Below, piece after piece: positions 9,025 to 58,080 of a stretch of 64,000 nucleotides of DNA. Under the pieces are notes generated by a model, which saw nothing but the letters and a program-made list of their open reading frames with translations, was not told the DNA's origin and did not search any database. The position numbers and the translations under genes were made by a program. Position 1 is the first letter of the stretch, and the number at the start of each line of letters is the position of its first letter. The stretch comes from an uncultured virus (IMG/VR IMGVR_UViG_2049941000_000050) (taxonomy: Duplodnaviria; Heunggongvirae; Uroviricota; Caudoviricetes): the IMG/VR virus record IMGVR_UViG_2049941000_000050. One strand, given 5' to 3'.

Positions 9025-9046
9025 CATTATCGTGGAGATTTTTTTC

Positions 9047-9084: not shown

Positions 9085-9109
9085 GGTAGGTGTCGGTTTA
9101 TCCAACCTT

Positions 9110-12308: not shown

Positions 12309-12316
12309 GGTCGGGG

Positions 12317-14640: not shown

Positions 14641-15516
14641 GTGGAAAACAGCGAGAAAATAGACGCCGTCATAACATACGTGGATAATTCCGACCCGGTG
14701 TGGCTGGAAAATTTTCTGAAATACTGCGACTCTTCCGACACCCCGAGATACAGACCATACGGGACTCTCCCCCTTTTTGTAAGGGGGATACGGAAATTCA
14801 TGCCCTTCGTGGGAAAGATTTTCCTCGTTGTCTCCAACCCGGAACAGGTACCCGCTGAGCTGGGCGGAAAGGTCGAAGTCGTTCTCCACAAAAGCATAAT
14901 TCCCGAAAAATACCTCCCGACATTCAACTCCACCACTATCGAGATGTTTCTCCACAAAATACCCGGTCTCTCAGAAAGGTACGTGTATTTCAACGACGAC
15001 ATGTTCCCAGTCGGGAAGCTTTCCGAGACGGACTTCTTTAGGGGTGGGAAACCCGTTTACTTCAAGATGTGCGGCGACGAAAGGGGTACAATCTGGACGA
15101 GGCAGATTTACAACAGCTACCGTTTGGCGAAGCGGGTTTCCGGGTATAGCGCGGACGAGCACGGGGTCGGCGGAGGGAAATACTTTTACGTCCGGCACTC
15201 ACCGACCCCGCTACTGAAATCCGACTGCGAGGAAATCTTCTCTGCGGCGGAAAAGGACATTCTGTACAGCCTGACCAAACTGAGGGAGCCGTTCAACTTC
15301 ACACAGTACCTCTTCTCGGATTACTCGATGATGAAGGGGAATTACGCCAGCGGGGGCTTCCCGTTCGCGTTCTATACGGTTTTGGAGCTGGACGCTCTGG
15401 AAGAGGACCTGAAAAGCGGGAAAAGCCTCGCGGTGTGCGTCAACGACGCCGACACCCCAGACAACGAGAGAACGGGAAAACGCCTCCGCGAGATTCTGTC
15501 CTTGAAAATGGATTAA
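14641..15516 (+). CDS. Stealth-family hexose-1-phosphate transferase
   Basis: CR1 IDAVITYVD, CR2 LPTFNSTTIE...IPGLSERYVYFNDDMF, CR3 HSPTP, CR4 CVND. Confidence 0.88.
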   Translation: MENSEKIDAVITYVDNSDPVWLENFLKYCDSSDTPRYRPYGTLPLFVRGIRKFMPFVGKIFLVVSNPEQVPAELGGKVEVVLHKSIIPEKYLPTFNSTTIEMFLHKIPGLSERYVYFNDDMFPVGKLSETDFFRGGKPVYFKMCGDERGTIWTRQIYNSYRLAKRVSGYSADEHGVGGGKYFYVRHSPTPLLKSDCEEIFSAAEKDILYSLTKLREPFNFTQYLFSDYSMMKGNYASGGFPFAFYTVLELDALEEDLKSGKSLAVCVNDADTPDNERTGKRLREILSLKMD

Positions 15517-23501: not shown

Positions 23502-24180
23502 TTACCATCCTCCTGACGTACTGGATTACCTCCCCGCCGACCGGGGACGAGAAAACCGACCTCAGAATCTCGGTTTTTCCTCTCGAGTACTTATCGACCG
23601 CGTCGTTTATTTCGGAAACGCACCTCGCGTCGCCGAGGTTTCTGTCCTTCGGGAGGTTCCTCACTTTCGCGCCGTACTCCCATTTCAGAATCTTGAACAC
23701 GGAATAGCTGTCCAGGCTTCTGTTTTTAACCAGAAACGCGTTTCCCCTTCCGAACGGGTCGCTTTTTCTGAAAAGCGAGTTGAACACGTTCTCAGAGAGG
23801 GAATTGAACATTCCGAGGTCGATTTTTATGTCCTTTTCTTTCAAGACAAACTTTATCTCCGGTTTCGAGGCAATCGCGGACCGGAGCCTCGCCGGGAAAA
23901 CCCCGCCCGTTGAATTTTTCAGAAGAATGTTGTCCGCCGGGTAGCATGAGCCGATTACGATAAGGAAATCCCTTCCGGATTCGGTGTATTCCGGAACCAG
24001 ACCCGAAACCGCCTCCTTGAAATAAAGTGAGAATTTTTTCTCAAGGGAGGACTCGGAAGCCCGCGACGAAAATATGTAGGTTCCGTCATCCCCCCTCGAA
24101 AAACTGTCGCCGTATTCCCCGAAAAACCTCAAAAAGCACATGTCGAGGACGTTTTTGTGGAAAATCGCGTGGAGCTTCAC
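23491..24180 (-). CDS. Hypothetical protein
   Basis: 229-aa ORF overlapping both neighbours. Confidence 0.65.
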   Translation of the reverse strand: MKLHAIFHKNVLDMCFLRFFGEYGDSFSRGDDGTYIFSSRASESSLEKKFSLYFKEAVSGLVPEYTESGRDFLIVIGSCYPADNILLKNSTGGVFPARLRSAIASKPEIKFVLKEKDIKIDLGMFNSLSENVFNSLFRKSDPFGRGNAFLVKNRSLDSYSVFKILKWEYGAKVRNLPKDRNLGDARCVSEINDAVDKYSRGKTEILRSVFSSPVGGEVIQYVRRMVNAR

Positions 24181-25124
24181 AAGACAAACCCGTAGTCCAG
24201 AACATCCCTCCGCTCGCTCTCGAAATCCAGTTTCTCGTCGAGCATTCTCGACACCCTTTTCTTGAGAGACTTCGGGATTTTTTTGAAATTTATGAGATAT
24301 GCGTTGAGCTTGAACCTCTCAGTCGCGGACAAATCCTTCCTCAGCATCGTGTTCAGCCTTCCGCGGTCCATAACCAAATCGAACGACTTCTTGTCTCCGT
24401 ACTTCGGGAAAACGTTCCTTATGTTGTCCGAAACGTCGCCGCGGATGACTTTCCAGAGGACAAACTCGCTTCTCGAGAGAACCACGTTGTTGATTCCGGG
24501 AACAGTTCTCATAACCCGTTCCCCCCAGCAGTTATACTGCTCAACGTCTTTCAGCTGGAGAAAATCCCGGTCGGAAGAAAATAAAACCCTCAGCATGTAA
24601 TCCGGGTACTTTTCCATTATGACGGCGACGATGTCGTCGCACTCGCACGATTTGTCGCCGACGATTCTGCACCCGGCTCTCTCCACGCCTATTTCCTCGT
24701 AAATGACGTTTTGGATATAATCCTTGATGGCGAACACGTCGTATCTTTTCTTTTGTGCCCTCCTCTGGGCCTTGTACAGCGGGTACGCCTTCTTCCGGAA
24801 ATTGTCGGACAGCTTGCCATCCAGCGCGAACACAAAATCCACCCCGCTGGCGCAGTCGACGCAGTCGCGGTGGTTGTCCCTGACAATCTGCTTCAGGTAG
24901 TCGAACTTCCTCTGGACGCTCTCACTGAGCCGACGTTTGAATGAGTTGTAGTTCAACAGGTTCGGAAGATTCTCCTGGTCGGTGTCCTTCGCTTCGCGGA
25001 GCACCGTGGACGCCTCCGCGGCGTTTTCCCTTTCCCAGTTCGAGACCGCGTTGTTGATGCAGACGTACTCGAAATTCGATGAGTCTATCACGACCAGTAT
25101 CCTGGTTGACCTGTCGAACATCAC
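24177..25124 (-). CDS. rnh: 5'-3' exonuclease / T4-type RNase H
   Basis: VIDSSN, FRKKAYPLYKAQR, ECDDI, SSDRDFLQL, RGDVSDNI. Confidence 0.88.
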   Translation of the reverse strand: MMFDRSTRILVVIDSSNFEYVCINNAVSNWERENAAEASTVLREAKDTDQENLPNLLNYNSFKRRLSESVQRKFDYLKQIVRDNHRDCVDCASGVDFVFALDGKLSDNFRKKAYPLYKAQRRAQKKRYDVFAIKDYIQNVIYEEIGVERAGCRIVGDKSCECDDIVAVIMEKYPDYMLRVLFSSDRDFLQLKDVEQYNCWGERVMRTVPGINNVVLSRSEFVLWKVIRGDVSDNIRNVFPKYGDKKSFDLVMDRGRLNTMLRKDLSATERFKLNAYLINFKKIPKSLKKRVSRMLDEKLDFESERRDVLDYGFVL

Positions 25125-32878: not shown

Positions 32879-35037
32879 TTATCGGTGTCCTTCGGTTGGG
32901 TTTTCGTCTCTTTGAAAAGGTTTTGGGCTATTACGGAGGGCTCGCTTATCAGGCTGAATCCGTAATCTGTCAGCGACAACTCGCTGTACTCCGCCATCTC
33001 GGTCCAGCTGTGGTATCTGGCGTCGGCGGCTCTCTTCGGGTAGAACCTTATGTCGAGGTTCAATGCCGTGGCGTCTTCAACGCACACCTGGACTACGATG
33101 TCGGTAGTGTTGTTGATTTCCTCTATCTGGGGGACGCCTTTAAATCCGAGCGGGTTTTTGCCCTTGTTCAGCTGGTAAAGGTCGGCGGCGACCTGGACGT
33201 ACCGCGTGTGCTTCAGCTCGTCGTAATACCTGACTATATCCCCGAGCACCGCTTCTTTTACCGCCGCGTCCAACAGTGACAGCTGGTTTTTGTTGTCCGA
33301 CGTGATGCGGAAGCTGAAAATCGTGTAGTTGTTCTCGGAGGTGGGGTATTCCGCGCCGTCGGTTCCTGTCCGTTTGTGTCTGTCGGTCGAGATGAAAATC
33401 TTGTACAGCGAGCTGAACTTGTCAAAGGCGTCCATCATCTTGACCGAGTTCACCTTTTCCCTGAGGACACCCTTCTCGCCGCAGAGCCGCGTAATCTTTT
33501 TCTCGATTTTCCTCGCGGTCTGCTCGTATTTCCCGGAATCCTCCCCGCTGAGCGATGCGCGGATATATTCGGACAGAAGGTACTTGTATCTTCTCGTCCA
33601 CTCGAGGATGTAGAAGTTAAAAACCTTGGACATTTCCACAAAACCGCCCGGAAGCGAGTTCAGCTTGGAGAGGTCGATTTCGAGACCGTTTTCGCCGCCG
33701 CTTTTTTTCCTTTTTTCGACAAGCTCCCTTATGTCGTCGGCGCACTGCGAGATGTTCAGCGCGAGCTGTTTCAGCCCGTCCCCAACCTTCTTCATAACCA
33801 GGTTGGTCAGATGCTTGTTGAAATCTTCGGTAAACCCGCTCTCGGACGGGTCCCCCTACTGGCGCACGATTTTGACGTTCTCCACCTTCCCGTTTTCAAC
33901 GGTGAACGTTGAGACCGTGTTGAATTTCAGATACTTGGACTTGTAGTAGTTCAGTTTTACCTCGACGAAAAAACACCTGTCGGGCCTTTCACTGACCATT
34001 TTCCCGATTTCTTTTTTATCCTGGGTGGCATCCCCGTCAAGCGAGACAAAAACGTCGGAGTGCTTATCCCCGCCGACATTTACCGCGTAGGTTTTTTCCG
34101 GACCGCCGCCGAGTTTCTCCCTCAGCGCGTCGTTCAGTTTCTGGGCAACCTCCTTCTCCCGCTTCTGCCACCGCGCTTCCTCTTTGCTTTTGGACTCCTT
34201 CAAGGTTTTTCTGGACTTTTCCTTGGTCGAGGGAAGCGACGTTTTCTGTGAAAACTCTTTTCTAAGGGCTCTGACCCTTTCTTCGGTCTCGGCGACCGTT
34301 GAACCGGGAAGCGTGATACTGCCGTCTAGAATCGGGAACGACACCTTAACCGAGGCTCCATCCTGCTCCAGCGTGCAGACCTCCATAGCCAGAATGTTGT
34401 CCAGTTTGTCGACAAATTCCTGGTCGGTCTTGGTGAACAGCTTTTTCCTCGACCTGTTGCTCGCCAAGTGGTTCCCGAGCGTGTTGAGAATCCTTTCGAA
34501 CGTATTATGCGGGTTCAGAAGGTCTTTGAGAAGCTCCCTGAAACCCTTTTTGGACAAATATTCCCTTTTTTCCGCCCATCCCCAGTTCTCGGAAGGATGG
34601 ATTAGTGTGTTTTTATAAAGCTGGTTCGACCGCGATATGAGGGTGTTAAGGTCGGTCGGGCTTTTCTTGTCATAACCGCCGCCGGACTTGCTCTTTACAG
34701 AAAAGTCGGTGAACCTCAGGCACTCCTTGCCTTTTCTGTCGGTGGTGGCGACGAAATTCACGGTGATGACGTAATTCCGCTTGTAAACTTTGTCCACGTA
34801 CACCTTCTGTCCTCTCGGGAACTTTTTCTAAACGGGTCCGGAATACAGTTTCGCCATCAGCTCGGCGACGCTGAGCGGCGGCGCAGAACTGGCTTCCTCA
34901 TCCTCGTCCCCCTCTTCCTTGCCGTTTTCGGAATCGGGGGAATCCGGTTCCTGTCGCTCCTATTCGGATTCGAGAAGTGACGACCCATTTTCAAAGAAAA
35001 ACTCTTTGAAAGAAATAATGTCCATTGTCCGACTCAT
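32875..35037 (-). CDS. ~720-aa protein with PD-(D/E)xK-like motif, probable head protein (TAGs 34962, 34830, 33858)
   Basis: In-frame joins; ATGA overlaps at both ends; SDVFVS...FVEVK; N-terminal ISFKEFFFE...LLESE. Confidence 0.7.
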
Positions 35038-36338
35038 TTCTTAAGAAGGTGCATAATCTGGTTTATCTGTCCGAACTGCCCGACGATTTTGTAGCATTTG
35101 CCGGTTTTACCGATTTTAATCACGACGCCCTCACTGGGGAAGTAATTGTCCTTCCAGTCGTTCAGCTTCTTCATGTTGCGGTTGAAGAGGCGGAGCTTGT
35201 CGCTGGTCAGCTTCCCGTTGTCCCTCTCAATCTCGCTAATCACGCTCTCGAGCTCGAGAACCAGCTTTTGCGAGGTTTTTGCCGGGTCGGCGGAAAGAAA
35301 GCCCATAAGATTCCTCATAAGGAGCGTCCCCGCCTTAGAGACGAGTTGTTCGACCGGGCGCATGATTTCCTCATTCATCTGGTCCCTCCCCCCGTCCAGT
35401 GTCTCTATGACCTTCTTGTACTCCTTCGAGTGGACGTTGACCCCGGCTCGCTTCGCGAACGTACAGATGTCGGCTTTGGTCGGGCGTTTGTGGGACATGT
35501 GGTTTAGGCGGTCTGCCAGCTCGCGGACGAACGGGCAGTCCGTGTCGACGCAGATATTGTTGTGGTTGCAGACGTTGATGATGTAGCGTTTCAGACGCTG
35601 GTTCGCATAGTCCTGAATCGTTGTGTTTAGCGAAAACCCGTCCAGAATCTTGTCAAAATCCTCAAGAAGTGTATCCAGAGCCTTTTTCGCGTTGACCGAG
35701 TCTTTGATTCTGAGAAGGTTCTGTTCGGTTATCTCGAACATTTCCTGGACAAGCGCGTTGTTCCTCTTTAACGTTTCGTAAAGCCACTTCGCGGAATCGC
35801 GGTCCTCGGAAATCTTATTGAACTTCGGGTCGAATACGTCAATTCCGTTAATCTGGAGGAAACACTTGTTGCCATAGTCGAGGATGTTCTTACACGGTGG
35901 ATAGACAATCTCGATATTGGCGAAGTTCTGCCCGTTGTTGAAAACCTTGTTGAGGTCCGTTGGGTCAATGGTCTTGAGCGCGGAGCAAAAATCCCTAGCG
36001 GAGCGGGTGAAGGCGTCCCTCAGTTTGGGGTTCCCGTCGAAATGGCACCCGAGGTGCTCGAGGTTCATCGGGTTTCGGAGGCTTTCCTTGTTTCTCGCGT
36101 ACCCGAACTTCCCGTCCTTGTACGTCACCATCAGGTTCATCCCGTCGATTTTCTCTCGGAGAACAGTTTTTCCTTGGAACACGTCCTGGAAAATCTGGCG
36201 CATCTCGTTGAAGGTCATCTTCCCATCTTGATATAGGTGTTGGATGCTTCCGCCCGCGCCGCCTTCCAAAAGAAGGTCCGCATCGTTGAAAGATTCGTTA
36301 ACAATCCGGAGCAAGTCAAGTCTGTTGTCGCTGTTCAT
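35034..36338 (-). CDS. Nucleotidyltransferase/RNA-ligase-like fold protein (DUF6267-like)
   Basis: LLEGGAGG..H, EKIDG (KxDG), EGVVIK...YKIVGQF. Confidence 0.6.
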   Translation of the reverse strand: MNSDNRLDLLRIVNESFNDADLLLEGGAGGSIQHLYQDGKMTFNEMRQIFQDVFQGKTVLREKIDGMNLMVTYKDGKFGYARNKESLRNPMNLEHLGCHFDGNPKLRDAFTRSARDFCSALKTIDPTDLNKVFNNGQNFANIEIVYPPCKNILDYGNKCFLQINGIDVFDPKFNKISEDRDSAKWLYETLKRNNALVQEMFEITEQNLLRIKDSVNAKKALDTLLEDFDKILDGFSLNTTIQDYANQRLKRYIINVCNHNNICVDTDCPFVRELADRLNHMSHKRPTKADICTFAKRAGVNVHSKEYKKVIETLDGGRDQMNEEIMRPVEQLVSKAGTLLMRNLMGFLSADPAKTSQKLVLELESVISEIERDNGKLTSDKLRLFNRNMKKLNDWKDNYFPSEGVVIKIGKTGKCYKIVGQFGQINQIMHLLKK

Positions 36339-36368
36339 AGTAAATTTTCCCAAAGTCCCCGTTCTTCT

Positions 36369-36455
36369 TATTTACGCCCCCAAAACGGCAAAAAAACCCG
36401 ATGGAGTAAATAACACCACGTCTAAATTGTCTGTATAATATTTAACATATTATAC
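36369..36455. promoter_or_regulatory. Divergent promoter cluster: GTAAATA on both strands plus palindromic GTATAATAT pair
   Basis: TATTTAC 36369-75 (-), GTAAATA 36406-12 (+), GTATAATAT-TTAAC-ATATTATAC 36433-55. Confidence 0.65.
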
Positions 36456-36471
36456 GGATTTCATTCGGAAA

Positions 36472-37107
36472 ATGAACAGCAAAAAGAAACAGCCCGAGAG
36501 AAAAGGCAAGTGCGCCCAGCAATAGCACAAAAGGACGAACAACCCGTTCCTCCACAAAAACAAAAAACCGGCGAAATCGATTCTCGAAATGACGGATGAA
36601 GAGCTGGAAAAAAGAATATAGGAGAAAAAGAGGAGGGACGAGCTGAACAAGGAGCGGTACTACGTCAACAACGCCGACCTCATTCGCGAGCTGGAGAGAT
36701 GGCGCGACAGCGGACCGACTTACGAAACGCGGGTAAAACCCTCCGACGATTTGGGGAGAATGTTCCTGGAGTTGGCGAGAAAGATATCCAACCATTCGAA
36801 TTTCCGAAACTACACCCTCGAGATGAAACAGGACATGATTGGGCACGCCTGCGAGAAGATGGTCCAGAGCGGGCTGAAAAACTACAACTTCAAATACACT
36901 AACGCGTTCGCCTACTTCTCCCAGACTTGCTTCAACGCCTTCAAAACCTACCTTTCCCAACACTACAAGCAGATTAACCTGAAAAGAAAATACACCAAGG
37001 ACGCCATTTTGGAACTGGACGTCCACATGCCGAACTCCGGGATGTCGAAATGCCTCGAAAACCAGTTCACCGGGAACGATTTCGACGATTTTTCGGATTT
37101 CGACTGA
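36472..37107 (+). CDS. Late-transcription sigma factor, T4 gp55-like (TAGs 36523, 36619)
   Basis: YYVNNADL...LGRMFLELARKISNHSNFRNYT...KQDMI...NAFAYFSQTCFNAF parallels gp55 YVNNKEL...FNFSGYT...WKQEMI...PHAYITQACFNAF. Confidence 0.88.
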
Positions 37108-37123
37108 TTCCGCGGGGGGAAAA

Positions 37124-37702
37124 ATGTCAACCGAGAAAATAAACCAGGCTCTGGGAATCGAGTCCATAGACTCGTTCCTTTCGTCGCTGAACGTGGACGA
37201 CGAGAAGATAAGACAGCTCGACGACATCGATACCCAGGTGAGGGGAGACGTTGAGAAAATAGACAAACAGATTTAGAACTTCAAGGAATCCGGGATTCAG
37301 GGGGTGAACCTGGACGACATAGACAGCTCACTCAGGCACATAAACGAGCTGATTGAGATTTCGAAGGACACGATACGGTTCGTCTACAACCAACTCACCG
37401 ACTCGGAACTGGTGGATTCGGAACTGGTCTCGAGCTTCTCGAAGCTCTTGGAGGCGGTCCACATCCAAATCCAGGAATACATAAGCCTGTACAAAGACCG
37501 CCAGAGCTTTTACTACAAGGTGAGGCTGGCGGCGATAAACCACAGCAACAAGCTCGAACAGATAAGGCTGAAACACAACCTGGATTTGGAAAAAATAGAG
37601 AAAATCAGGAAAAAGGGCGACAGCGTGGACGTTGAAAACCGGTACACCTATTCACAGGAAGACCTGATAAGCGAGCTCGACAAGATGGAGCAATCGCTCT
37701 GA
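37124..37702 (+). CDS. Helical hypothetical protein (TAG 37274)
   Basis: ATG 37124 is in frame with 37304..37702 through one TAG. Confidence 0.7.
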
Positions 37703-38866: not shown

Positions 38867-40432
38867 TCAAGCAAACACGGTACCGTTCTTCACGGTCGTG
38901 TACGGCTGGATGAACTGGCGTTCGCCGTTTGCCCAGTTGTACGGGGAGGTCAGACCCTCGACCATGATGTAGTGGTAGTAGTTCTTGGCATCCCAGACGC
39001 TGTTCATGATGCCGTAACGGGTGCGGGCACCAATCCGAGGGGTCATGGTGAACGGGTCGAGAACGCGTTGCAACTGCACCGGGACGTACGGGCAGTAGAT
39101 GATGCCGTTGTCGGCGGGGTGTGCGCCCTTGTAACCCATGACGATGTAATCGCCGACCGCGAACACGTCGCGGACCAGAAGTTGCTGACCGTCGTTCAAC
39201 AGACCGACCTTAGTCAACGCGCCGACGCCGGAATCCGGAACGCTCGGTGTATTCTTCGAGTTCTGGAATGAGACGAACTTTTCACGGCTCATCTGCTCGA
39301 GCAACGCGCAGACGCGAGGCGAAGTCACGACGAAGTTGGCGTGACCGCGACGGGTGCGGATGGCAATCTGGTTGGCTTCGATGGTAATCTGGGTCAACAG
39401 GGTCTGCAAACGTCCCATCTGGTCGAGGCCGTCCGCATACGCGGGGTTCCATGCGGTGACGGAGCCACCGACGATGGCGGTCTTCACCATCTCGGTGATG
39501 AGCTGACGGTCGATTTCCGCGCCGAGCTCGTAGGAAACCAGCTTCACGAACTCAGACTCAACGTCGAAGTTGTGGATGGCATCCATGTCCTCGGCCAGTT
39601 CGGGAGACCAACCAGCACCGAGCTTACGGGTCTTCGCCTCAACCATGGTCTTGAGGAAGTCGAAGCTCACGGTCGGATACGAACCGTCCAAGAACGAAGC
39701 GTATTCGGAAGCGGTTCCGACTTCGCGACCCTGACCGGTCCAAGGCTTCAGGCCGTCGGTGCCGAGATAGGCTTTCCACGCGGCTTCCTTGGTGGGAACG
39801 GTGGCTCCGCTGACGGTCTCGCCGGTGAACTCGATTTGGTCGGGGGCGTTCTCGGAGGTCAGCGAGGTCAGGTTGGTCAGTTCAACGCCGGTGTACCGGG
39901 TGTCGGTCGGATTGAAGCCGATTTCGGTCTCGGGAAGTGCCACCTTGGGTTGAAGTTCCGGACGGATGGTGTTGCCCAGCCAGCCGTCGGAGCCGTACTT
40001 GGCGCGGTACGCCAGAGCGTAGCCCACGGGACCGTTCATCGCCTGGACGCCGACCAGCTCATGCGCGATGAGGGACGGGAACAGACGGCGGACCATCGGC
40101 ATGATAGCGTTAGGCAGATAGTAGTCGCCGTAATTACCACCCCTGGCGATAGCGTCGCGACCAAAATCGCCCTTCATGAAGCCGGTAGAATACTTGCCGT
40201 TCTTAGAGACCGGACGCGGCTCGCCCAGCGGGCGCGGAGCACCAGCCGCCATGCCGACGCCGGTGGCCTCGGTCAGTATGCCAGCGTTTACGAATTCGCG
40301 GGCGGTGTTCTCAAGCAACTGCGAGAGGGACTTCTTGACCTCGAAGCTCTGAACCTTCTCGGCTCCGGCTTCGACGATAGGTGCCCAGCGTCTCATCACA
40401 GTTTCGATGTCTTCAATAACTCTCTTAGCCAT
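38867..40432 (-). CDS. Major capsid protein, T4 gp23-like
   Basis: MVRRLFPSLIAHELVGVQAMNGPVG, EAKTRKL...ELAED, EIDR, YCPYVP, PRIGARTRYG; LTE|A cleavage-like site. Confidence 0.97.
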   Translation of the reverse strand: MAKRVIEDIETVMRRWAPIVEAGAEKVQSFEVKKSLSQLLENTAREFVNAGILTEATGVGMAAGAPRPLGEPRPVSKNGKYSTGFMKGDFGRDAIARGGNYGDYYLPNAIMPMVRRLFPSLIAHELVGVQAMNGPVGYALAYRAKYGSDGWLGNTIRPELQPKVALPETEIGFNPTDTRYTGVELTNLTSLTSENAPDQIEFTGETVSGATVPTKEAAWKAYLGTDGLKPWTGQGREVGTASEYASFLDGSYPTVSFDFLKTMVEAKTRKLGAGWSPELAEDMDAIHNFDVESEFVKLVSYELGAEIDRQLITEMVKTAIVGGSVTAWNPAYADGLDQMGRLQTLLTQITIEANQIAIRTRRGHANFVVTSPRVCALLEQMSREKFVSFQNSKNTPSVPDSGVGALTKVGLLNDGQQLLVRDVFAVGDYIVMGYKGAHPADNGIIYCPYVPVQLQRVLDPFTMTPRIGARTRYGIMNSVWDAKNYYHYIMVEGLTSPYNWANGERQFIQPYTTVKNGTVFA

Positions 40433-40458: not shown

Positions 40459-41445
40459 TTAGTTTTTCGGGGTGATGCGTTCAAGGATTTCAATCCAGTT
40501 CTGCATCATCGACTCGGTGATTTTCACCTCGGCATCCTCTTCGTCAGCCTCGGGTTCCTCTTCCTCACCTTTGTCGGCGGTCCGAACCGGAATGTTTTCC
40601 GTATTTCCCTTTTCCTCATCACCGGTCTTTTCGGAAGTTTCTACCTCGTTCTTTTCCAGAATGTCGGCTATCGCCTCCTCCAAGTTCTTTTCTTCCTGAA
40701 TCTGGTCCGCCTCGCGGACAACCTCTTCGTGCACAGACTCAAGGATTTTCTTGAAATTCTTCTCGTCCTCGACCTCTCTCAAAGACAGTTTCGAAAGGAT
40801 TTTCCTCGCTTTCCTGGACTCGGCTATCGGAAGGTTCTTCGTCTTTTGCTTGATGATTCCCCTCTTAACGATTTCCTGATACCCGTTGGAAAGCTTGTCG
40901 GTTTTTTCCGCGGCTTCTTTGAGGATTCTCTTGTATTTACTGACCTGTTTCTTCAGGTCTTCGTTTTCGCTCATCAGCTTCTCGTCGCGCTCGTCTCTGA
41001 GCTGGCTGATTTTCTCCTCGGCGTCGCCGACAACCAGCATCTCCTTTAGCGACTCGAGCAACTGCTCCTGCTTCTGCATCCGCTTGTAATCAACGATTTC
41101 CTTCTTCGGAAGCACTTTCTCGATGTGTTTTCCGAGATACTTGTCGACGGACTCGATTACGAGGTTGAGGTCCTTCTTGCGGTCAATCTCGTTCGCCTTC
41201 TGAAGAATCATCTTCTGCTTCCTGGCGATGCTCTCGAAAATTTTCCGGAATTCCGCCTCGTTCTGTTTTTCGACAACCTTCCGGGTCGCCTCTATAGCCC
41301 GGTCCCTGGTCTCCGCCAGTTTGGTCTGGAGGTCCAGCATGAACGTGTCCAGACTCTGCTTTTGCGACTCGGTAAGCTTTACTCCGGCTTGTTCAAACGC
41401 CGCGAGCAAGTTGTCGTAGCTTTTTCTTAGTGATTTAATCGTCAT
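40459..41445 (-). CDS. Prohead core scaffolding protein, gp22-like
   Basis: Charged helical protein directly upstream of gp23; ESVDKYL; many [ILV]xES motifs. Confidence 0.7.
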   Translation of the reverse strand: MTIKSLRKSYDNLLAAFEQAGVKLTESQKQSLDTFMLDLQTKLAETRDRAIEATRKVVEKQNEAEFRKIFESIARKQKMILQKANEIDRKKDLNLVIESVDKYLGKHIEKVLPKKEIVDYKRMQKQEQLLESLKEMLVVGDAEEKISQLRDERDEKLMSENEDLKKQVSKYKRILKEAAEKTDKLSNGYQEIVKRGIIKQKTKNLPIAESRKARKILSKLSLREVEDEKNFKKILESVHEEVVREADQIQEEKNLEEAIADILEKNEVETSEKTGDEEKGNTENIPVRTADKGEEEEPEADEEDAEVKITESMMQNWIEILERITPKN

Positions 41446-44870: not shown

Positions 44871-45021
44871 GTACTGAATCGGGAATCAACGCCTGCGGAG
44901 TTGAAGGCTCTGATTTTGGATGTCGAACATCCAAGATGAAACCATCGACATTGAAGCAGGAAAATCCGAGGGAAGTTCAACCACCCTCAATCTCAACGGT
45001 CTTCAGCCGTTGAGCAGTTGA
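44871..45021 (+). mobile_element. Orphan tnpB 3' end / omegaRNA (reRNA) scaffold and right end of an IS200/IS605- or IS607-type element
   Basis: AACGCCTGCGGAG...TTGAAGCAGGAAA...terminal hairpin CTCAACGG-TCTTCAG-CCGTTGAG-CAGTTGA; encodes RESTPAE, like TnpB C-termini. Confidence 0.65.
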
Positions 45022-46236
45022 AAATTTCTCCGTATTTCTCGCGGAATCCCCCGCTATGAGGAGTGAAACCAACAAATTCGCGGCGTATCCGCACAAAATC
45101 AGAACCATAACCGGGAAGAACCCGCTAAACCTGCCCAGAACGAACGTCGAGCAGAGATAGGCCATCAATGAGGCCATTCCCCACGAAGTTAAACAGAAGC
45201 CGTGCCTTTGGGACAGTGTGTCCTTACCGTACCGGCTCTCGAGGACGCTCGGGAGGACGGCGAAAGCCGCCCCGTACCCGGAGTGGACCAAAATCACGGC
45301 AATCGCGGCGGGAACCGCCATCCACCCGATTCCGAAGGAGAGGAGAATCGGTGCCATGAGAAGAATTTCGAACGCGACAATCGAAACCGTGATTTTCGAC
45401 CGGTTTTTCAGAAAATCGCTGACCGCCGGGAAAACGAGACGCCCGACGCCGTTGAAAATCCCGCACAGCATCATCACGGTTATGACCGCTTCCCCGGAAA
45501 GACCCATCTCCCTGAGAACGCTCGCACAGGAGCCGATGAGAATCAGTCCCATGGAAATGTTCAGGAACATAAAGAGCCAGGTTTTCCCGAAGAACCCGCT
45601 TTTAAGCGTGTCGATGTACGAAAACGGGCTTTTTTTCTGCCTTTTAAGCTTCAAAAGGGCGTATTTCGGCTTGTTGATGAGAAAAGCGGAAAGAAACGCC
45701 GGGACAGAATAAATCGCCGCGAGGGAATAAAACATTCCGGAAATTCCCGCCTTCGGGAAAAGGGTTCCAAAAAGCCACGAGCAGACGGCGGAGCCGAGAC
45801 CGAAGGTGAAAATCGAAATCGCGGAGAGAATCCCCTTATGTTTGGTGGCCGGGAACCAGAGAATCATGTTCTTGTTCGGGGTGACGTATCCGCACCCCTC
45901 CGCGGTTCCGGCGAAAAACCCGCACCCAAGGTACATCAACCAAATGTTTTTCAGCTGGCAGGCGAGACCGCCGAGAGCCAGACCGACAACAAGAAGCGTC
46001 GCGGAAACGGTCGCCGCAAGCCCGATTCTCTTTTCGACGAGCGGACCGAAGGTGGCCGCGCCCATCCCGAGGAAGAATATGTTCAGGCAGAACGTGAACT
46101 GGGCGGATTTTACCGAACAGCCGATTGCCTCGGCGATATGCGGCGTAAAAAGACTCCACGCATAGCAGAACCCGATGCAAAGGGTTAAAAGAACGCAGGG
46201 GATTACGGATTTCGAAAGCTTGTACAGAAGTTTCAT
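44977..46236 (-). CDS. MFS transporter, oxalate/formate antiporter (OFA) family
   Basis: ~12 hydrophobic segments; CIGFCYAWSLF, GCGYVTP...WFP...KG, FNGVGRL...SD, YGAAFAVLP. Confidence 0.88.
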   Translation of the reverse strand: MKLLYKLSKSVIPCVLLTLCIGFCYAWSLFTPHIAEAIGCSVKSAQFTFCLNIFFLGMGAATFGPLVEKRIGLAATVSATLLVVGLALGGLACQLKNIWLMYLGCGFFAGTAEGCGYVTPNKNMILWFPATKHKGILSAISIFTFGLGSAVCSWLFGTLFPKAGISGMFYSLAAIYSVPAFLSAFLINKPKYALLKLKRQKKSPFSYIDTLKSGFFGKTWLFMFLNISMGLILIGSCASVLREMGLSGEAVITVMMLCGIFNGVGRLVFPAVSDFLKNRSKITVSIVAFEILLMAPILLSFGIGWMAVPAAIAVILVHSGYGAAFAVLPSVLESRYGKDTLSQRHGFCLTSWGMASLMAYLCSTFVLGRFSGFFPVMVLILCGYAANLLVSLLIAGDSARNTEKFSTAQRLKTVEIEGG

Positions 46237-46896: not shown

Positions 46897-48210
46897 TCAC
46901 AAATCGTCGATTTCCATCATGTTCATGTTTCTCGGGTCGAAATTCGGGAAACCGGTCGCGACGAGAAAGTTCCTCAGCGTGTTGATGATGAGCTTTTCCC
47001 ACATAACGTCGTAGTCGATTTGAAAAATTTCCCCGAACTCCTTCGGGTACTGGTCCGGCTTGTACGCGAGAACGTTTATCGCGAACTTGTTCGACGGCTT
47101 GACGTACAGGAACCTCACCTTGTCCCCGACCAGAATGTGGTCGTACAGTTTCCCGAGCCCCATCTTGTCGATAATCTGGTTGTAGAACGTGCAAGCCTTG
47201 GCGATGCCCGTTGTTCCCTTCATCATTTCCAGAAATCCGGTGGACTCCCTCTCGGTGCCGTACCCCTTCCAGAAAGCTATCTCGTCCACACCGAGCCTTA
47301 TGAACTTTTCGTACGCGGCGGACAGGTATTTCCTGAAATCGTCGGATTTCCACCTCTTCGTCAGAACGCCGCCGTAAATGTCGCCGAGAATCTCCTTAAC
47401 CATCGGCGGAACGTTCCCCTTCTTGAGCTCGATTCCGGAATACTTGATTTTGTCCACCACCTCCGGACCCTCGGAAACGATTTTCCTGACCCCGTAGTGC
47501 TTCTTCGACTCGTAGATTCCCGTGTCGGCTATGTATTCCAGCGAATACCTCAGCACCCCCGGGTTTTCCGAGCGGTACTTTTCCTTGACAAGGTTCTGGA
47601 CATAGGGGTTCAGGTCGTTCTCGACAAAATCCTCGACGTATTTCCACAGCTTCAGCTTCCACTCGTCGGACCAGTCGATTAGGTTTTCCGGGAGGTTGTT
47701 CTGACGCCTGAAAAAGTCGGTTATGCAACGGATGGAAATGAACTGCGAGTTGTGGACGAGGATGTTGTCCGCGTAAAAGCAGTGCCCGTCGTCGTCGACC
47801 TCGATGTCGTAGACCCACTCCTCGGTTTTCCCGGTGTCATCGATTTTCGAAATTTCCCCGACCAGCTCGGAATCCGACTTTCTGTCGTAGACGGAGACAA
47901 GGTCCCCGACGCGGAGCTCTTTGGCGGCCTTGTTTTCGAAAAAGTGGTCCGTGTTGTAAACCATGCAGACGTGGTCGGTCGTTACGGTTACGGAATCCTC
48001 GCCCCTTTCCGAGGAAACGGTCACCCTAATCATGTTTTTCACGGTCTTGTGCCTCGAGACGTAGATTATCCTCGAGAAACCGTTTCCGAGCGTCCTGGTT
48101 TCCACGTCGCCGCAGTAAATCAGCTCGTAGCCGTTCATCTTTATGACTTTTCTCCCCTCGTCGAGTAGGGACTGGTAAAAATCTTCCAGCGAGACGTCTT
48201 TTTCTTCCAT
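46897..48210 (-). CDS. DNA polymerase B C-terminal half preceded by 154-aa C-intein (48210..47749)
   Basis: Intein blocks TTDH, WVYDIEV, NILVHN|S; then KKHYG...KYSGIELKK polB motifs. Confidence 0.92.
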   Translation of the reverse strand: MEEKDVSLEDFYQSLLDEGRKVIKMNGYELIYCGDVETRTLGNGFSRIIYVSRHKTVKNMIRVTVSSERGEDSVTVTTDHVCMVYNTDHFFENKAAKELRVGDLVSVYDRKSDSELVGEISKIDDTGKTEEWVYDIEVDDDGHCFYADNILVHNSQFISIRCITDFFRRQNNLPENLIDWSDEWKLKLWKYVEDFVENDLNPYVQNLVKEKYRSENPGVLRYSLEYIADTGIYESKKHYGVRKIVSEGPEVVDKIKYSGIELKKGNVPPMVKEILGDIYGGVLTKRWKSDDFRKYLSAAYEKFIRLGVDEIAFWKGYGTERESTGFLEMMKGTTGIAKACTFYNQIIDKMGLGKLYDHILVGDKVRFLYVKPSNKFAINVLAYKPDQYPKEFGEIFQIDYDVMWEKLIINTLRNFLVATGFPNFDPRNMNMMEIDDL

Positions 48211-48219
48211 GATAATATT

Positions 48220-49506
48220 TTATGATTTCAGAAAATCAAGGCATTCGGAAATAACCCGCTTCGGGTCTTTATAAAAATCACCTTCCCACACTATCTTAAC
48301 CTTATAACCGGCTTTCTCGATTGCCTCGATACGTTTTCGGTTTTTCTCCCATATAAGTTTCGCCGGTCTCGTCAGAATGATATCGTCCTCCCGGTACCTC
48401 TTAGGGTTGGCGTGATAAAAATCCCCGTAAAATTCTATAACCTTATCAAAAAGGGTATAATCCAGGCTAACCAGCTTATGTTCCCCGCCGATTTCCAAAT
48501 TCAACGAGAGTTCTCCGTTGTTCTTATCTCCGTATCTTGAATTTATCCTGGAAATTTCATACATTTCGTCCAATGTGTAAAAAAGCTCCACACTGACCCC
48601 GGAATAATTGTTGTTCTTTTTTGTAACGTAAGAAATCCACTTCAACGCCCCTTCGTTTTCCCCGTACTTCTTTATGAAATTGTCGTATGTGATTCTTTTG
48701 TCTTTGCAGACTCGCCTGTACTCCTCTAAACCTTTCTCTTTCCCGTATTTTTCGACGAAATACTCAAGTTTGCAACCAGCATACGCCTGTCTTTCACAAT
48801 AATCCTCCCACATTTTGGTTCCGACCTCGGTCCCGTGCCTCAAAATAAGATTTTCTTTTGTCACGGCTCGGCTTTGGTTGAATTTATTCCATTCTTCCTC
48901 GGTCATTCCCTTCTCACCCATCATATACTCTTTAGAACAGGTGTATGCCTGCCTTTTCGTGTATTCTTCGTATTTTTTCCTTCCCTCCACTTCTCCGTGA
49001 CGCTTTATGAAGGATTCTAGTGACGCGGTATCGAATTTTCTATGTTCAACCTCAAGCTCTTCGTCGGTTATGTCAAACAAAAGCTTGAAATATTTCGACG
49101 GCGACGTCCAAGCCGCCGGTGGGCGAAAAATCCCGCTCTTAACGTCCTTATACCACGATGATTTTAACGCTCTCTTTGAAATATTTTCAATCTCTGGGAG
49201 GTGTTTAAAAAAGCAGTCCCAGCACACCTTTCTGAAAAACGTCTTTCCGGACAGTTCCCGCCCCCTGACAAGCCATCTGTTGTGTTCGTTTTCGACATAT
49301 TGTCGATAAACGCCATTCTTCACAACAACAAGTTTCAAAATGCTCCTTGTAGCATCTGGTTTGTATCTCACATCAACAATATCGTTGACATCCACCATAA
49401 ATTTTCCGCACTCCCTGCAATAGAAATCGTTGATTTTCAAACCGTTATCTTTCCAATAATCAACCAACGTCCAGCCGTTAATTTTCTCAATTTCTTTGAA
49501 TGTCAT
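48220..49506 (-). CDS. Free-standing putative homing endonuclease (Vsr/DUF559-like C-terminus)
   Basis: LDY...VIEFYGDFYHANP...R...GYKVKIVWE; CxxC pairs; four (K/R)(H/Y)GxxxG repeats; AT-rich. Confidence 0.8.
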   Translation of the reverse strand: MTFKEIEKINGWTLVDYWKDNGLKINDFYCRECGKFMVDVNDIVDVRYKPDATRSILKLVVVKNGVYRQYVENEHNRWLVRGRELSGKTFFRKVCWDCFFKHLPEIENISKRALKSSWYKDVKSGIFRPPAAWTSPSKYFKLLFDITDEELEVEHRKFDTASLESFIKRHGEVEGRKKYEEYTKRQAYTCSKEYMMGEKGMTEEEWNKFNQSRAVTKENLILRHGTEVGTKMWEDYCERQAYAGCKLEYFVEKYGKEKGLEEYRRVCKDKRITYDNFIKKYGENEGALKWISYVTKKNNNYSGVSVELFYTLDEMYEISRINSRYGDKNNGELSLNLEIGGEHKLVSLDYTLFDKVIEFYGDFYHANPKRYREDDIILTRPAKLIWEKNRKRIEAIEKAGYKVKIVWEGDFYKDPKRVISECLDFLKS

Positions 49507-49579
49507 GGATTTCCTTTAATGGTTATGATTCATATTATATTTACTTTTTAGTGGGGACACAGCTTTTTAAGAAAAGAAA

Positions 49580-51676
49580 TCAGCTTTTTGTGCATATTTT
49601 TAGCTAGGATGGGCATTTTCTCACACAAATACTTGTATGGGGGGACGCCGTGTCCGTATCGCCTGAAATTAAATATAATAATTTTTTACTATCCCCCAAA
49701 ACGTCTATCAAATTCGGCGGCGGCGGGAGCGCGAACTCGCTCCCGAATTTTTTGTTGAAAACTTCCGCGACGTGCAACGCCGCGTTTATGTTGCAGAATT
49801 TTCCCGTTCTCGTGATTGTCTGTGCCATGTACAGATTGTAAATCGGCGAAAAAGCCGTACCGATTATACCGTAAATCGAGTTAATCATGATTTTGAGAGC
49901 CTGCTGTCTCGAATCGAGGTACTGTATCAGCTCCTCGGTTTTCGGGATTTCGCTTTCCGGGACCTCTTTCCTGTGGAGCGACATTTTCAGCCTCCCCATT
50001 TCCTTCTTGGTCGCCTTTCTGAGGTTGAAAAAGTGGGTGCACCACTCCGCGACGACGCCCTTCCGGACGCTGTGCTTGAGGAAGAGCGTGTTGTTTCTCG
50101 TGAAGATGCACTTTTCTCTCAAAAGCCCGTCGAGCTTCTCCCTCGAGACGGTTTTCTGCTCGCCGCTGGCTGAAAGAAGGTAAAACCTTTCTATGCCGGT
50201 TTCCGTCTCGAGGTCTATGGGGGGCTCGGTTTTGAACGCCTCCATGTTTTCCCCTATCGGGTTCCTGGAGATTTTACCGACGTACGTTTCCGGAGAAATG
50301 TTCGCGGCGCGGATTGACGACGGGTAGAGGGAGTTGTAGTCGACCACCGCTATCCCGTCGCGGTATACTGAGGGAACCGGCTCGAAAACGAACGCGCCCT
50401 CGAATTTCTCGTTGCTGTCCTTCCTCGACTTGTAGGAGGTGAAGACGGCTTTCCCCATGTTGGTCCTCGCGAAGGTGACCAGCGAGCCGACCAGGTAGCC
50501 GATTGAGGAGTATATGGAGTTGTAGTCGCTCAGACCGCTCGAGGTTATGGTCCGGGAAAGCTGTATCAGGCGGCATTTCTCCTCGATTCTGCGGAGGAGG
50601 TCCACGTCTCGGACGTTGTACTCGTAAAACTTCTGGAAATCGTTCTCGTAGAGCGTCTTGAGGTTTCCCTCGTACGCGACTTTCCTTCCGAGACCCTCGG
50701 CTTCGCCGACGTTGGAGAGACCGTATCCGCCGTCGAGGGGGTTCTTGATTTTGAACTTGTCGCGGTAGAGGACGAGCGCGTCGGCGAGGAATATTCCGGA
50801 TATTTCCGCGAGGATTTCCGCCTGTTTGTTGGCGCGTTGGTTCTCGGTGTTGTTCTCGCGCACGGAGACCCTCCCGACCGGGGACAGGCGTTTCGTGGTC
50901 TCAGAGAGACGCCCCGTTCCGACGTTGTCCGGGTTGCCGAGGACGCGCTCGACGCGGTTTACGATGTAGGGGATATCGTAGGACTGCGAGTTCCATCCGC
51001 AAATCACGTCCGGCGGGTTGTTTTCCATCCACCGCACGAAATTGAGGAGCATCGAACGCTCGTCGCCGCGGAATTTCCTGATTTCGAACAAATCCCCGGG
51101 CATTTCGGTCATCGGGCTCTCGGAGAACTCGCTACTGCACTCGCCGGTGGTCCAGGTGTGGTACTTTTTCGTGACCGAGTCGTGGACCGTAATCATGTTT
51201 ATGGGGTTTCTGGCGGTTTTCGGGGGCTCGAACTGCGCGGTCATCACTGTCTCGATATCGATGTACTGTATTCTGAGCGGCTGTGTGTTGAAATTTTTGT
51301 CGAGCGCGACGGAGTCGAACATTTTGTGGAGAAACTCGCTCTCGGGTCGGAGGCACTCGACTATGTTCAGCGAGCCGTTGCATGCGTCGACGTACGAGGA
51401 GCGGGCTTTGGCGTTCTTGAACGTCCTGGTGTCGACGTACCGACCGTAAATGTCCCTTTCCGCGGTTTTCCTTCTGACCGCGTGCTTAATCCACGACCTG
51501 TGGGGGCAAATGAAGGTTGCCGGGTTCCCGGCTGGGTCGTAGCCGAGAAGGATTATCCTCCCGTTTCTGTCCGCGTCGGTCGTGTAGTGGCAGGAACGGT
51601 AGCCGTTCCCAATGTAATCCTTCCATTTCTCGAAGGGGATATCGGTCAAATCGACCGCTGTGTCGAAAATGCTCAT
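49580..51676 (-). CDS. DNA polymerase B N-terminal half ending in short N-intein (from 49651; ends TAG 49604 or TGA 49580)
   Basis: DIET, GWNSQSYD, YNVRD, DYNSLYPS, KIMINSIYG, SGDTD|TASPHTSICVRK. Confidence 0.93.
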
Positions 51677-54491: not shown

Positions 54492-54632
54492 ATGCAACCC
54501 TTCGAAGAGAAAAAGGCTAAAATCAAAGCTTCTCTCTCATTAACCCGCGAAAAGCGGAAATTTCAGGTCTGTCGCGTATTCAAAGTTAAAATACAGAATA
54601 ACCGCCTCTTGAAAAAACAGAAAACGGTTTAA
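54492..54632 (+). pseudogene. Truncated N-terminal fragment of a TnpB-family protein (46 aa)
   Basis: KKAKIKASLSLTREKRKFQVCRVFKVKIQNNRL recalls TnpB N-termini (KIK.TL..TRERRK.Q.CKV..LKI). Confidence 0.5.
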
Positions 54633-55651
54633 ATCACGTCCGCCACGGAATATATCCCGTAATTTTCGTGGAGAAACCCCCTTAGTTTCGATAACGCGCT
54701 CTCTTTCGCCGTGACTATCGTTTTCTGCGGGATGTTGAACATTGTCGAAAGTTTTTTCAGGCTGGCGTTGCTGTTGTAAAACGTTTCCTCGAGAATCCCC
54801 CTCTCCAGTGACGAAATCTCCGGGGACGAGTTTATGAAATCCCTGAGACGGTCGTAAATTTGGGTGCACTCGTTCGAGGAAACCGTTTCCACCAGCTCCG
54901 GCTGGCGTTTGTAGTCCGGGGAAATCATGTCGTCGAGGTAGTTCTCGAAGGTGAGGGTTTTGTTCACGCCGTTTTTTACCTTCACCAGCTCGTGAATCGA
55001 CGTGGAGTTGTTGTCGATTTTGATTCCCTTGTCGTAAAACTCCTGCATCACGTACTTGAAAATCCAGAACTGCGCGAACGTGTTGAATTTCACGAAATTC
55101 GGGTTCCCGCTCTCGTCGTACTGTATGTCGTGTTTGATAACCGCACGGAGCTCGCCGGTTTTCTTCTTTCTGAGCGTCCCGTAAACCGTCAGCGGGTTCA
55201 TTTCCGCGTCGCACACGATTTTCTTCTCTCCGGAGCCTATCAGCTCGGGGTATTTGTCGGGCGGGAGCTTCGTTTTCGTCACGACCAGTCGGAACGGGTG
55301 GAAAATGTTTGACGCCTTGGTCAGGCCGTACAGCCCCTTCGCGTACATGTTGTCGTAATCCCTCGTGTCCTGGCAATGCTTCGACGAAATGTTGGTTACC
55401 GCCTGGAGATTGTGCATCGTGAGGAGCTTTCTCATCTCAGATTCGTTCCCGACCCACTCGAAGTCGCACTCGAAATCGTCGTTGAAGCTAATCTTTCCGT
55501 TTTCGTCGCGTTTCAGTCGGGCGTAGCTCTCAATCATGGAACGCTCCTCGTCCTTCGTGAAAATCTGGTACTTCTTATTCAGTTTTCGTTGCTTGCGGAT
55601 AAAATCCGAGGCCGTCTTGTTGTTCTGAATGATTCCGTTTGAGTTTATCAT
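54629..55651 (-). CDS. Phage sigma70-family factor with insertion in region 2
   Basis: FTKDEE, HNLQAV.NIS.K, GLYGLTKA..F, KFNTFAQFWI, C-terminal HTH SLKKLSTMFNI...ALSKLR. Confidence 0.8.
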   Translation of the reverse strand: MINSNGIIQNNKTASDFIRKQRKLNKKYQIFTKDEERSMIESYARLKRDENGKISFNDDFECDFEWVGNESEMRKLLTMHNLQAVTNISSKHCQDTRDYDNMYAKGLYGLTKASNIFHPFRLVVTKTKLPPDKYPELIGSGEKKIVCDAEMNPLTVYGTLRKKKTGELRAVIKHDIQYDESGNPNFVKFNTFAQFWIFKYVMQEFYDKGIKIDNNSTSIHELVKVKNGVNKTLTFENYLDDMISPDYKRQPELVETVSSNECTQIYDRLRDFINSSPEISSLERGILEETFYNSNASLKKLSTMFNIPQKTIVTAKESALSKLRGFLHENYGIYSVADVI

Positions 55652-55678
55652 GGTACTTTTTTCTCCAAAAACACCCAT

Positions 55679-57971: not shown

Positions 57972-58080
57972 TAAAATATTTTCCTATAGGAAAACACGCG
58001 TAAATCTTCCGTTTTAAAGGTAAAAACAGATAAATCGCGTGTTTTGGAAATATTATACAAAAAAAAAAACGTATAATATG

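Follow-up and report, generated by a model that had tools for sequence, protein, structure and literature searches.

A gp55-type late sigma factor gene with in-frame TAG codons suggests that late transcription in a T4-related phage depends on UAG decoding

The window analysed here, a stretch of 64,000 nucleotides (nt) from an uncultured virus of the Caudoviricetes (IMG/VR record IMGVR_UViG_2049941000_000050), has 50.6% G+C and four short runs of N, none of them close to the gene that concerns us. That gene, at 36472-37107 on the plus strand, encodes a homologue of gp55, the late sigma factor of phage T4, and holds two in-frame TAG codons ahead of its conserved core. From the sequence, UAG is decoded as Gln in this phage. 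We consider it probable that this is the late sigma gene of a T4-related cattle-gut phage in which full-length gp55, and with it transcription from GTAAATA promoters, depends on a UAG-decoding tRNA. The dependence of gp55 itself on UAG decoding is the step of this reading that is well supported. Positions before the conserved motif are given negative codon numbers.

36472..37107, plus strand: gp55-type late sigma gene, long form; 211 codons if TAG is Gln, ending in TGA (37105-37107)
36523..36525, plus strand: first in-frame TAG, codon 18, in the basic disordered N-terminal tail; CCG in strain X7
36589..36591, plus strand: internal ATG (Met40), corresponding to the conserved Met at -24 of loci L081, L082 and L084
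36619..36621, plus strand: second in-frame TAG, codon 50, 12 codons ahead of the motif and midway along predicted helix 42-58
36631..36645, plus strand: AGGAGG and, after 6 nt, CTG (Leu58), which might serve as a weak internal start or re-initiation site
36658..36672, plus strand: YYVNN motif, where the sigma-region-2-like core begins; aligns with T4 gp55 residues 8-13
37072..37104, plus strand: C-terminal tail GNDFDDFSDFD, acidic and aromatic; relatives conserve it, and the model shows it as disordered

Genes were mapped with a codon-usage model in which TAG is sense (54 genes, 19320 codons), and the gp55 frame scores 0.30 per codon, among the higher values of the window. Greedy longest-open-reading-frame (ORF) calling, also with TAG as sense, was dropped, having picked antisense shadows, one of them over gp55. 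Read in the standard code, the gene yields peptides of only 17 residues from ATG 36472 or 10 residues from ATG 36589, from which the second TAG is codon 11. The initial annotation had placed both candidate ATGs upstream of TAG 36619 with no ATG, GTG or TTG before the motif, and the codons confirm it: GAG AAA AAG AGG AGG GAC GAG CTG AAC AAG GAG CGG follow the TAG, then TAC TAC GTC AAC AAC of YYVNN, with no such in-frame start among them. The next canonical in-frame start is TTG 36751, 31 codons beyond YYVNN. The TAG at codon 18 was absent from that annotation. The sole route to the conserved gp55 protein crosses a TAG.

Sequence and fold both bear out the assignment as gp55. PHROG 234, 'late sigma transcription factor', matches residues 59-182 of the product (P0001) with an E-value of 1.1e-25, and T4 gp55 itself (PDB 7d7c chain F) matches residues 61-174 (E 4e-13). 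The AlphaFold (AF2) model, built on 18 sequences with a predicted local distance difference test score (pLDDT) of 74.6, is all-helical from residue 67 (helices 67-78, 92-106, 116-137, 145-185 and 190-200), is disordered over residues 1-35 and has a further helix at 42-58 with pLDDT 66-78. It shows the expected sigma-region-2-like helical core (H1-H4) and, after it, a long helix-loop-helix. A fold search with this model placed 7d7c_F at the top (E 1.6e-4, probability 1.00, template-modelling (TM) score 0.70 on the target, root-mean-square deviation 2.0 Å over 112 columns), and it is the sole PDB fold match with E <= 0.001. The product matches 1374 phage records, and among the matches listed most are annotated as gp55 or late sigma; a Pfam search of the product returned no family. 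In T4 gp55, the acidic H3 residues E70, D74 and E77 contact the clamp helices of RNA polymerase, as section 7 of PMC7892883 describes. The window protein has D, H and E at these positions, so that two of the three are acidic, and the D is invariant in the alignment of relatives. That alignment also shows a conserved tail pattern, NQFxGNDxDxFxE[FY]; the alignment to T4 stops at residue 174, so the motif is not directly matched there. By analogy with T4, the tail is a candidate sliding-clamp-binding motif (PMC7892883 section 7, PMC2988020). No PHROGs match to a gp33 or clamp (gp45) family was found among the 53 other predicted proteins of the window.

What sets the protein apart is its N-terminus, with 61 residues before the motif compared to about seven in T4 gp55. 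A protein search gave 17 relatives among 87 candidates. Five of them, P0003 and P0007-P0010, begin M-[TS]-D/K-x-E... at the position of Met40, and align from there across the TAG position to the motif. Their Met start may be an artefact of standard-code gene calling past an upstream TAG; these proteins are known as translations only, which cannot show whether a TAG lies inside. In each of the four nearest loci, L081-L084 (49-61% identity), an ATG lies further upstream, at -63 to -76, and the frame from that ATG to -24 contains one to three TAGs and no TAA or TGA. Including the window, the frame 5' of -24 is free of TAA and TGA in 5/5 members of the nearest group, and a PF(G/L)(G/H)K patch is common to L083, L084 and the window. 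In the column of TAG 36619 the aligned relatives have S, K, E or R. The extension is thus conserved as protein in relatives, and for this reason the TAGs must be decoded.

A related strain, X7 (run X7), supplies a 956-nt contig about 87% identical to the window, with 91 differences and 8 gaps over 36430-37144; the readings that follow come from the listed 40 of 106 differences. Position 36619 is C in X7, turning TAG into CAG, and 36523-36524 are CC. Four single-base insertions or deletions within 36498-36533 sum to zero. The exchange of TAG for CAG at 36619 directly supports both TAG as Gln and translation of the codon. With the segment at 36619 aligning as protein, falling in a predicted helix and reading CAG in X7, the claim that the conserved form of gp55 needs TAG reading stands. 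Run X6 covers 36200-36258 only, and run X10 contributed no matching sequence. The X5 pieces over 36593-36644 were taken as chance matches, being 39 nt of purine-rich sequence with 7 mismatches and loose ends on both sides.

The same arrangement recurs widely. A single-protein scan of viral contigs with gp55 gave no relative; two alignment-based scans gave 160 loci, 74 of them with E <= 1e-20 to P0001 and 60 after duplicate removal, of which 58 were anchored (L120 and L128 were left out). In 35 of these 58 non-redundant relatives, no ATG, GTG or TTG offers a TAG-free route to the motif. Nine recoded loci do have such a route, in five of them only through an internal TTG, 11-26 codons before the motif and within the conserved helix. 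The remaining 14 loci are without sign of recoding, although L081 and L083 are counted there solely for contigs too short to judge. At least one TAG falls in codons -30 to -1 in 39 of the 44 recoded relatives. The initial annotation had suggested a check of whether 5' TAGs are conserved in recoded relatives; their presence largely is, whereas the exact TAG is not.

TAG also appears enriched in the extension, a signal that weakens once related sequences are collapsed. Pooled over 56 loci, TAG makes up 99/295 Gln-type codons of the extension, 37/304 of the core and 408/2464 of flanking ORFs. A locus-stratified test on the 34 loci that carry TAG and have 400 or more flanking codons gives an odds ratio (OR) of 3.4 for extension against gp55 core (p 2e-7), 1.5 for gp55 against flanks (p 0.002) and 0.81 for gp55 core against flanks (p 0.40). 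Across the 44 recoded loci the TAG share in codons -30 to -1 is 55/166 (33%). The opening 60 codons of 177 flanking ORFs have 103/489 (21%; Fisher p 0.002); N-terminal boundaries follow a 'first ATG' rule that may take in non-coding triplets, and these controls follow the same rule. Other controls give 310/1735 (18%) in the remainder of the flanking ORFs, 38/242 in the gp55 core of recoded loci, and, in a small sample, 4/53 in Lys/Glu/Gln/Arg-rich blocks of flanking ORFs (p 1e-4). TAG positions vary within and between clades, with at least 12 positions in use, and in two clades single columns of the N-terminal helix hold TAG in some members and Gln in others. Even so, the two large clades keep at least one TAG in 23/23 and 10/10 loci. 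When loci are clustered at 80% identity, 16/21 clusters against 9.8 expected carry the pattern (p 0.002), and at 70% identity 11/16 against 7.1 (p 0.03). TAGs of the nearest group lie at -37 to -64, except in the window (-12) and in L088 (-9, -8 and -6). In L088, which has a short extension, three TAGs fall within five codons before the motif (...SQ TAG TAG E TAG KNTDRYYVTN). Finally, gp55 is the sole TAG-bearing gene among its neighbours at L082 (4/11 vs 0/73), L101 (3/9 vs 0/49) and L088 (4/8 vs 0/16, the latter count coming from its single flanking ORF).

Two kinds of promoter-like box stand in front of the gene:

36369..36375, minus strand: GTAAATA late-type box, 16 nt before the start of the divergent neighbour gene (35034-36353)
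36406..36412, plus strand: GTAAATA late-type box of gp55, 60 nt 5' of ATG 36472, with the core TAAATA as in the T4 late promoter
36429..36459, no strand: perfect inverted repeat, 13-pair stem and loop TTAAC, comprising two back-to-back TATAATAT boxes
36434..36441, plus strand: TATAATAT box (-10-like), 31 nt 5' of ATG 36472; ATAACA-18-TATAAT scores 10/12

GTAAATA occurs 17 times in the window against 3.7 expected, a count that no shuffle reached, and strand-matched copies stand 5-60 nt before 15 gene starts, among them the tail tube, two fibre-like genes, the scaffold-capsid unit, gp55 and its divergent neighbour. By analogy with T4 (PMC2988020), we infer that GTAAATA is a gp55-dependent promoter. 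The notion that GTAAATA-proximal genes are TAG-rich was dropped, since the 12 genes with GTAAATA only have TAG in 14/178 Gln-type codons, the average share. The second box, TATAATAT, has 14 copies against 0.23 expected, at sites including 5797, 9917, 14628, 44836, 49532, 51686 and 54465. The starts of polB, a GroES-like gene, a phosphoesterase gene, a Stealth-family gene and others follow it at 6-30 nt; several of these genes are TAG-free (polB, the GroES-like gene and the phosphoesterase gene among them). Its placement suggests a second class of promoters whose transcripts have a very short leader or none. That gp55 stands behind such a TATAATAT box, as the TAG-free polB and GroES genes do, speaks for the reading of the initial annotation. 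The kinase gene is preceded by a classical TTGACA-N17-TAAAAT promoter.

Many relatives have the same pair, a gTATAATat box and a late box, 20-60 nt ahead of the first gp55 ATG; the late box there is often the palindrome TAAATATATTTAC. ATG 36472 is favoured as the start, because both boxes lie just upstream of it as they do before the first ATG in relatives. The gene's own late-type box suggests positive feedback, if the box acts as its sequence implies. The inverted repeat at 36429-36459 has a folding free energy of -12.7 kcal/mol (z -4.0) and presents TATAATAT boxes on both strands; judged by sequence, the back-to-back boxes might serve as an operator or as a promoter for both directions, or they might form an RNA hairpin in the transcript that starts at the late promoter. 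A second such pair lies at 58050-58079, with an A-run between the boxes. A Shine-Dalgarno-like match of even 4 nt precedes only 20 of the 54 genes, so such a sequence is not required for initiation in this phage, and the objection that ATG 36472 and ATG 36589 are missing one was dropped.

In the window as a whole, 23 of the 54 genes contain in-frame TAGs, 49 in all, or 49/563 Gln-type codons (8.7%). ORFs of 2017, 1060, 928 and 720 codons, with two to five TAGs each, are open only if TAG is sense, and conserved genes such as the tail tube, portal and glycosyltransferase genes bear TAG. TAGs lean toward gene starts, with 19/49 in the first quarter of genes (p 0.03). By PHROG and Pfam matches the gene set is T4-like (major head protein, portal, tail tube, split polB, exonucleases), and further annotated genes encode translation initiation factor 3 (IF-3), an AAA ATPase with a VWA protein, two GroES-like proteins and fibre-like giants. 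The initial annotation's list of TAG-free genes is right for infC (4205-4774), VWA (6330-7730), AAA (7734-8930), the kinase gene (11847-12308), a FEN/rnh-like gene (24177-25124), both GroES-like genes and the C part of polB; the N part of polB has one TAG, 7 codons before its end and beyond the GDTD motif. The idea that this TAG gates replication first was dropped, as it lies in the 7-codon tail after GDTD.

The split between TAG-free and TAG-bearing genes that the annotation had drawn proves statistically weak. Of the 28 genes with 8 or more Gln-type codons, 8 lack TAG where chance would give 7.7 (p 0.52). The one region to stand out is 3100-12310, a block that holds infC and the phosphoesterase, VWA, AAA and kinase genes among others, with TAG in 0/56 Gln-type codons (p 0.006). 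The TAG-free early set appears real but modest. The major head protein gene (38867-40432, minus strand, 521 codons) and the scaffold-like gene (40459-41445, minus strand, 328 codons) together have TAG in 0/36 (p 0.04), so TAG is not a simple marker of late genes. The rule that TAG-free means early was dropped in view of these two genes and the flat dispersion test. That the scaffold and capsid genes are TAG-free despite a GTAAATA box upstream may reflect UAG avoidance in the most highly expressed late genes.

We propose a model where gp55 mRNA would first arise from the TATAATAT promoter, a -10-type common to the TAG-free replication and chaperone genes, and later also from the gene's own GTAAATA late-type promoter. 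Ribosomes starting at ATG 36472 would have to pass the UAG codons at 18 and 50, and those starting at ATG 36589 would still meet the second UAG. Both UAGs fall in a lineage-specific extension before the sigma core, predicted to consist of the basic disordered tail and one helix. The host would terminate at UAG, and the phage would make a suppressor tRNA before or while gp55 mRNA appears. Once made, gp55 would act at the GTAAATA promoters that probably serve the tail, fibre, portal-region, scaffold and capsid genes. If gp55 needs UAG decoding, the TAG-free capsid genes therefore also lie downstream of the code change. UAG dependence would in this way set the timing or the dose of gp55.

It is plausible but unproven that this amber gate was selected as such. 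A tentative extension of the idea is that the N-terminal extension is a selected amber checkpoint across a clade of TAG-recoded T4-like gut and rumen phages, in which at least one UAG is kept while its position turns over. The late sigma factor would then accumulate only once the phage's UAG-decoding tRNA works. All GTAAATA-driven genes would come under the code change in this way, the TAG-free and highly expressed capsid and scaffold genes among them, and, combined with the gene's own late-type promoter, the checkpoint could commit the phage to its late programme in a self-reinforcing, switch-like manner. The gp55 of T4 is a middle protein required for all late transcription (PMC6024815, PMC2988020), and section 9 of PMC2988020 argues that the dose of the late sigma factor and its timing relative to replication are critical. 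This argument provides a rationale for a timing gate, or for dose attenuation through inefficient read-through.

Several observations weigh against dependence of the late programme on UAG decoding. TAG 36619 is labile, being CAG in X7 and other residues in L081-L084, and the TAG load of gp55 in the window (2/11 Gln-type codons) is not unusual in itself, since at the 8.7% background P(>=2) is 0.25. Seven of the 15 GTAAATA-proximal genes are TAG-free, those with GTAAATA only have an average TAG share, and TAG-free genes are about as frequent as chance predicts. The late-type box that gp55 has besides TATAATAT was counted as weakening the reading of the initial annotation. No tRNA gene was found in the window, hence no suppressor tRNA is seen there; a tRNA model run on the records of four recoded relatives, fragments that are 24-69% complete, likewise found none, and 10 tRNAs appeared only in one non-recoded record. 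Among relatives, the 'first ATG' boundaries may overextend the N-termini, and the enrichment fades with collapsing, to 5/9 clusters against 3.2 expected at 60% identity (p 0.16). That the extension is Lys/Glu/Gln-rich and poorly constrained favours neutral gain of TAG.

These points come together in the explanation that there is no gate. The TAGs would then be ordinary synonymous Gln codons that accumulate in a weakly constrained segment of Lys/Glu/Gln-rich composition, with a UAG-decoding tRNA present early enough that they neither delay nor limit gp55. The unremarkable TAG load of gp55, the swap with CAG between strains at an unconserved position, the core share equal to that of flanking genes and the loss of significance on clade collapsing all fit, as do the 5' bias of TAGs in the phage and the statement in section 7 of PMC7892883 that gp55 homologues often lack the N-terminal region and conserve it poorly. 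The 5' bias, however, is slight in the relatives' flanking ORFs (21% in the first 60 codons, 18% in the rest). An absence of gating also leaves unexplained the TAG excess in codons -30 to -1 over flanking ORF starts drawn by the same rule and over blocks of similar Lys/Glu/Gln/Arg-rich composition, the retention of at least one TAG by every member of the two large clades though positions shift, and the three loci where gp55 alone among its neighbours bears TAG. The TAG-free block at 3100-12310 argues for a phase without UAG decoding. On balance, we regard the absence of a gate as rather unlikely.

A different possibility is that a 154-residue gp55 is made in the standard code from CTG 36643, which lies behind GAGGAGG, either by direct initiation or by ribosomes that terminate at UAG 36619, 21 nt upstream, and then start again. 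In that case late transcription would not need the code change. The initial annotation had raised AGGAGG (36631-36636) 6 nt before an in-frame CTG as a caveat, and this is not only confirmed but sharpened, since position 36643 is A in X7, making the codon ATG, with GAGG kept upstream; this too speaks against a need for UAG decoding. AGGAGG at this spacing is one of the window's best Shine-Dalgarno matches near any start, and the product, MNKERYYVNN..., would have a T4-like N-terminus, with the motif from residue 8 as in T4 gp55 and a length shared by many non-recoded relatives. A stop, then a Shine-Dalgarno sequence, then a start is the classical layout of translational coupling, which the order UAG 36619, GAGGAGG, CTG matches. 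IF-3 governs start-codon fidelity, and the phage encodes a homologue. CTG is nevertheless a poor initiator in studied bacteria, and AGG AGG simply encodes Arg-Arg, aligned with K-R, A-R or Q-R in relatives. L081-L084 keep neither the Shine-Dalgarno-like run of 36631-36645 nor a start-type codon after it; their codons there are CTG without such a run, CCG, TAC and CAG. With so few genes of the window preceded by a Shine-Dalgarno-like match, none is needed for initiation, and the conservation of the upstream extension as protein implies that the main product includes it. We judge the short form improbable. The claim that gp55 is made only after the code switch is upheld in so far as the conserved form needs TAG reading, and qualified by the possible short form from CTG 36643.

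Very improbable, in our view, is that the TAGs are not stops in need of recoding at all, either through a host that reads UAG as sense or through a pseudogene or assembly error. The absence of both TAGs from the related strain X7 could be taken that way. Against an artefact, 99-100% of sampled words are present in four runs of the probable source sample, in-frame TAGs occur in 23/54 genes, very long conserved ones included, codon usage over the gp55 frame is typical of a gene, and relatives from many samples show the same pattern. A host with UAG as a sense codon would leave the TAG-free gene block difficult to account for, and we know of no bacterial lineage in which UAG encodes Gln.

With T4 gp55 (7d7c chain F; PHROG 234), which works with gp33 and the gp45 clamp, the window protein shares the sigma-region-2-like core in sequence and fold, and its C-terminus is an acidic and aromatic tail at the place of the T4 clamp-binding motif. 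As in T4, a single-element A/T-rich box with the core TAAATA precedes structural genes, its promoter activity here being predicted. Unlike T4 gp55, the protein has a 61-residue N-terminal extension that carries two in-frame TAGs, and its gene has a late-type box of its own. The T4 late promoter consensus is TATAAATA, from which the window box, (c)GTAAATA, differs. A similar late-promoter change at -13/-12 is described for phage Aeh1 in PMC2988020. According to the same source, T4 gene 55 amber mutants, which are conditional-lethal, show no late transcription without a suppressor tRNA. The window gene is a natural counterpart of that genotype, except that the amber codons are wild-type here, lie in an extension absent from T4, and the suppressor is presumably supplied by the phage.

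Recoding of TAG to Gln (code 15) has been proposed to regulate late and lysis genes in gut phages, by Borges et al. (bioRxiv 10.1101/2021.08.26.457843) and in the report on Lak phages (PMC6784885). As in those phages, TAG-free genes stand here beside TAG-bearing ones. That model points to structural and lysis genes, whereas in this phage a late-class transcriptional master regulator is recoded and the capsid and scaffold genes are TAG-free. Control would thus act one level higher, on late-class transcription. Our literature searches, which covered Borges et al. as the preprint without its supplements, returned no report of a recoded late sigma factor; the word 'sigma' is absent from the available text of that preprint, PMC10607447 and PMC11210395, and the portions of PMC6784885 seen mention sigma factors of Lak phages only as auxiliary genes. 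A recoded late sigma factor is a new twist on the known idea that recoding regulates late genes.

Recoding in phages has been proposed to time late and lysis proteins. If our model is correct, translation reprogramming sits upstream of late transcription, and one tRNA controls a promoter class that includes genes without recoded codons. Although the phage is uncultured, the hypothesis is open to tests that use reporters and recombinant proteins. There is a practical side as well, in that standard-code gene callers truncate or miss the regulator, and database entries of relatives begin at internal Met residues.

Beyond these subjects, the window holds several other genes of note. Downstream of gp55 follows a co-oriented gene:

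37124..37702, plus strand: 192 codons, one in-frame TAG at codon 51, no family match

Neither Pfam nor PHROGs match the gene at 54629-55678 (minus strand), the phage sigma70 of the initial annotation; it lies directly behind a TTGACA box, and its C-terminus is helix-turn-helix-like by eye only. The polB gene is in pieces across 46897-51676 (minus strand). Its N part, 49580-51676, ends shortly after the GDTD motif, and between the parts lies a 428-codon ORF (48220-49506, PHROG 22677) with GTAAATA and TATAATAT boxes of its own. The first approximately 150 residues of the C part (46897-48210) look intein-like by eye, ending HN then S. Candidates for the split are an intron with a homing endonuclease, an intein, or both. 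The IF-3 homologue (4205-4774, minus strand; PHROG 9787, E 2.6e-36) is TAG-free and may bear on non-AUG starts such as CTG 36643. Also TAG-free are a Major Facilitator Superfamily transporter gene between the structural and replication genes (44977-46236, minus strand; Pfam MFS_1, E 6.5e-20), a GP88-domain protein gene (9970-11871, minus strand; E 1e-23) and a gene for a Stealth_CR2 domain protein (14641-15516, plus strand; E 1e-25), a family known from capsule phosphotransferases.

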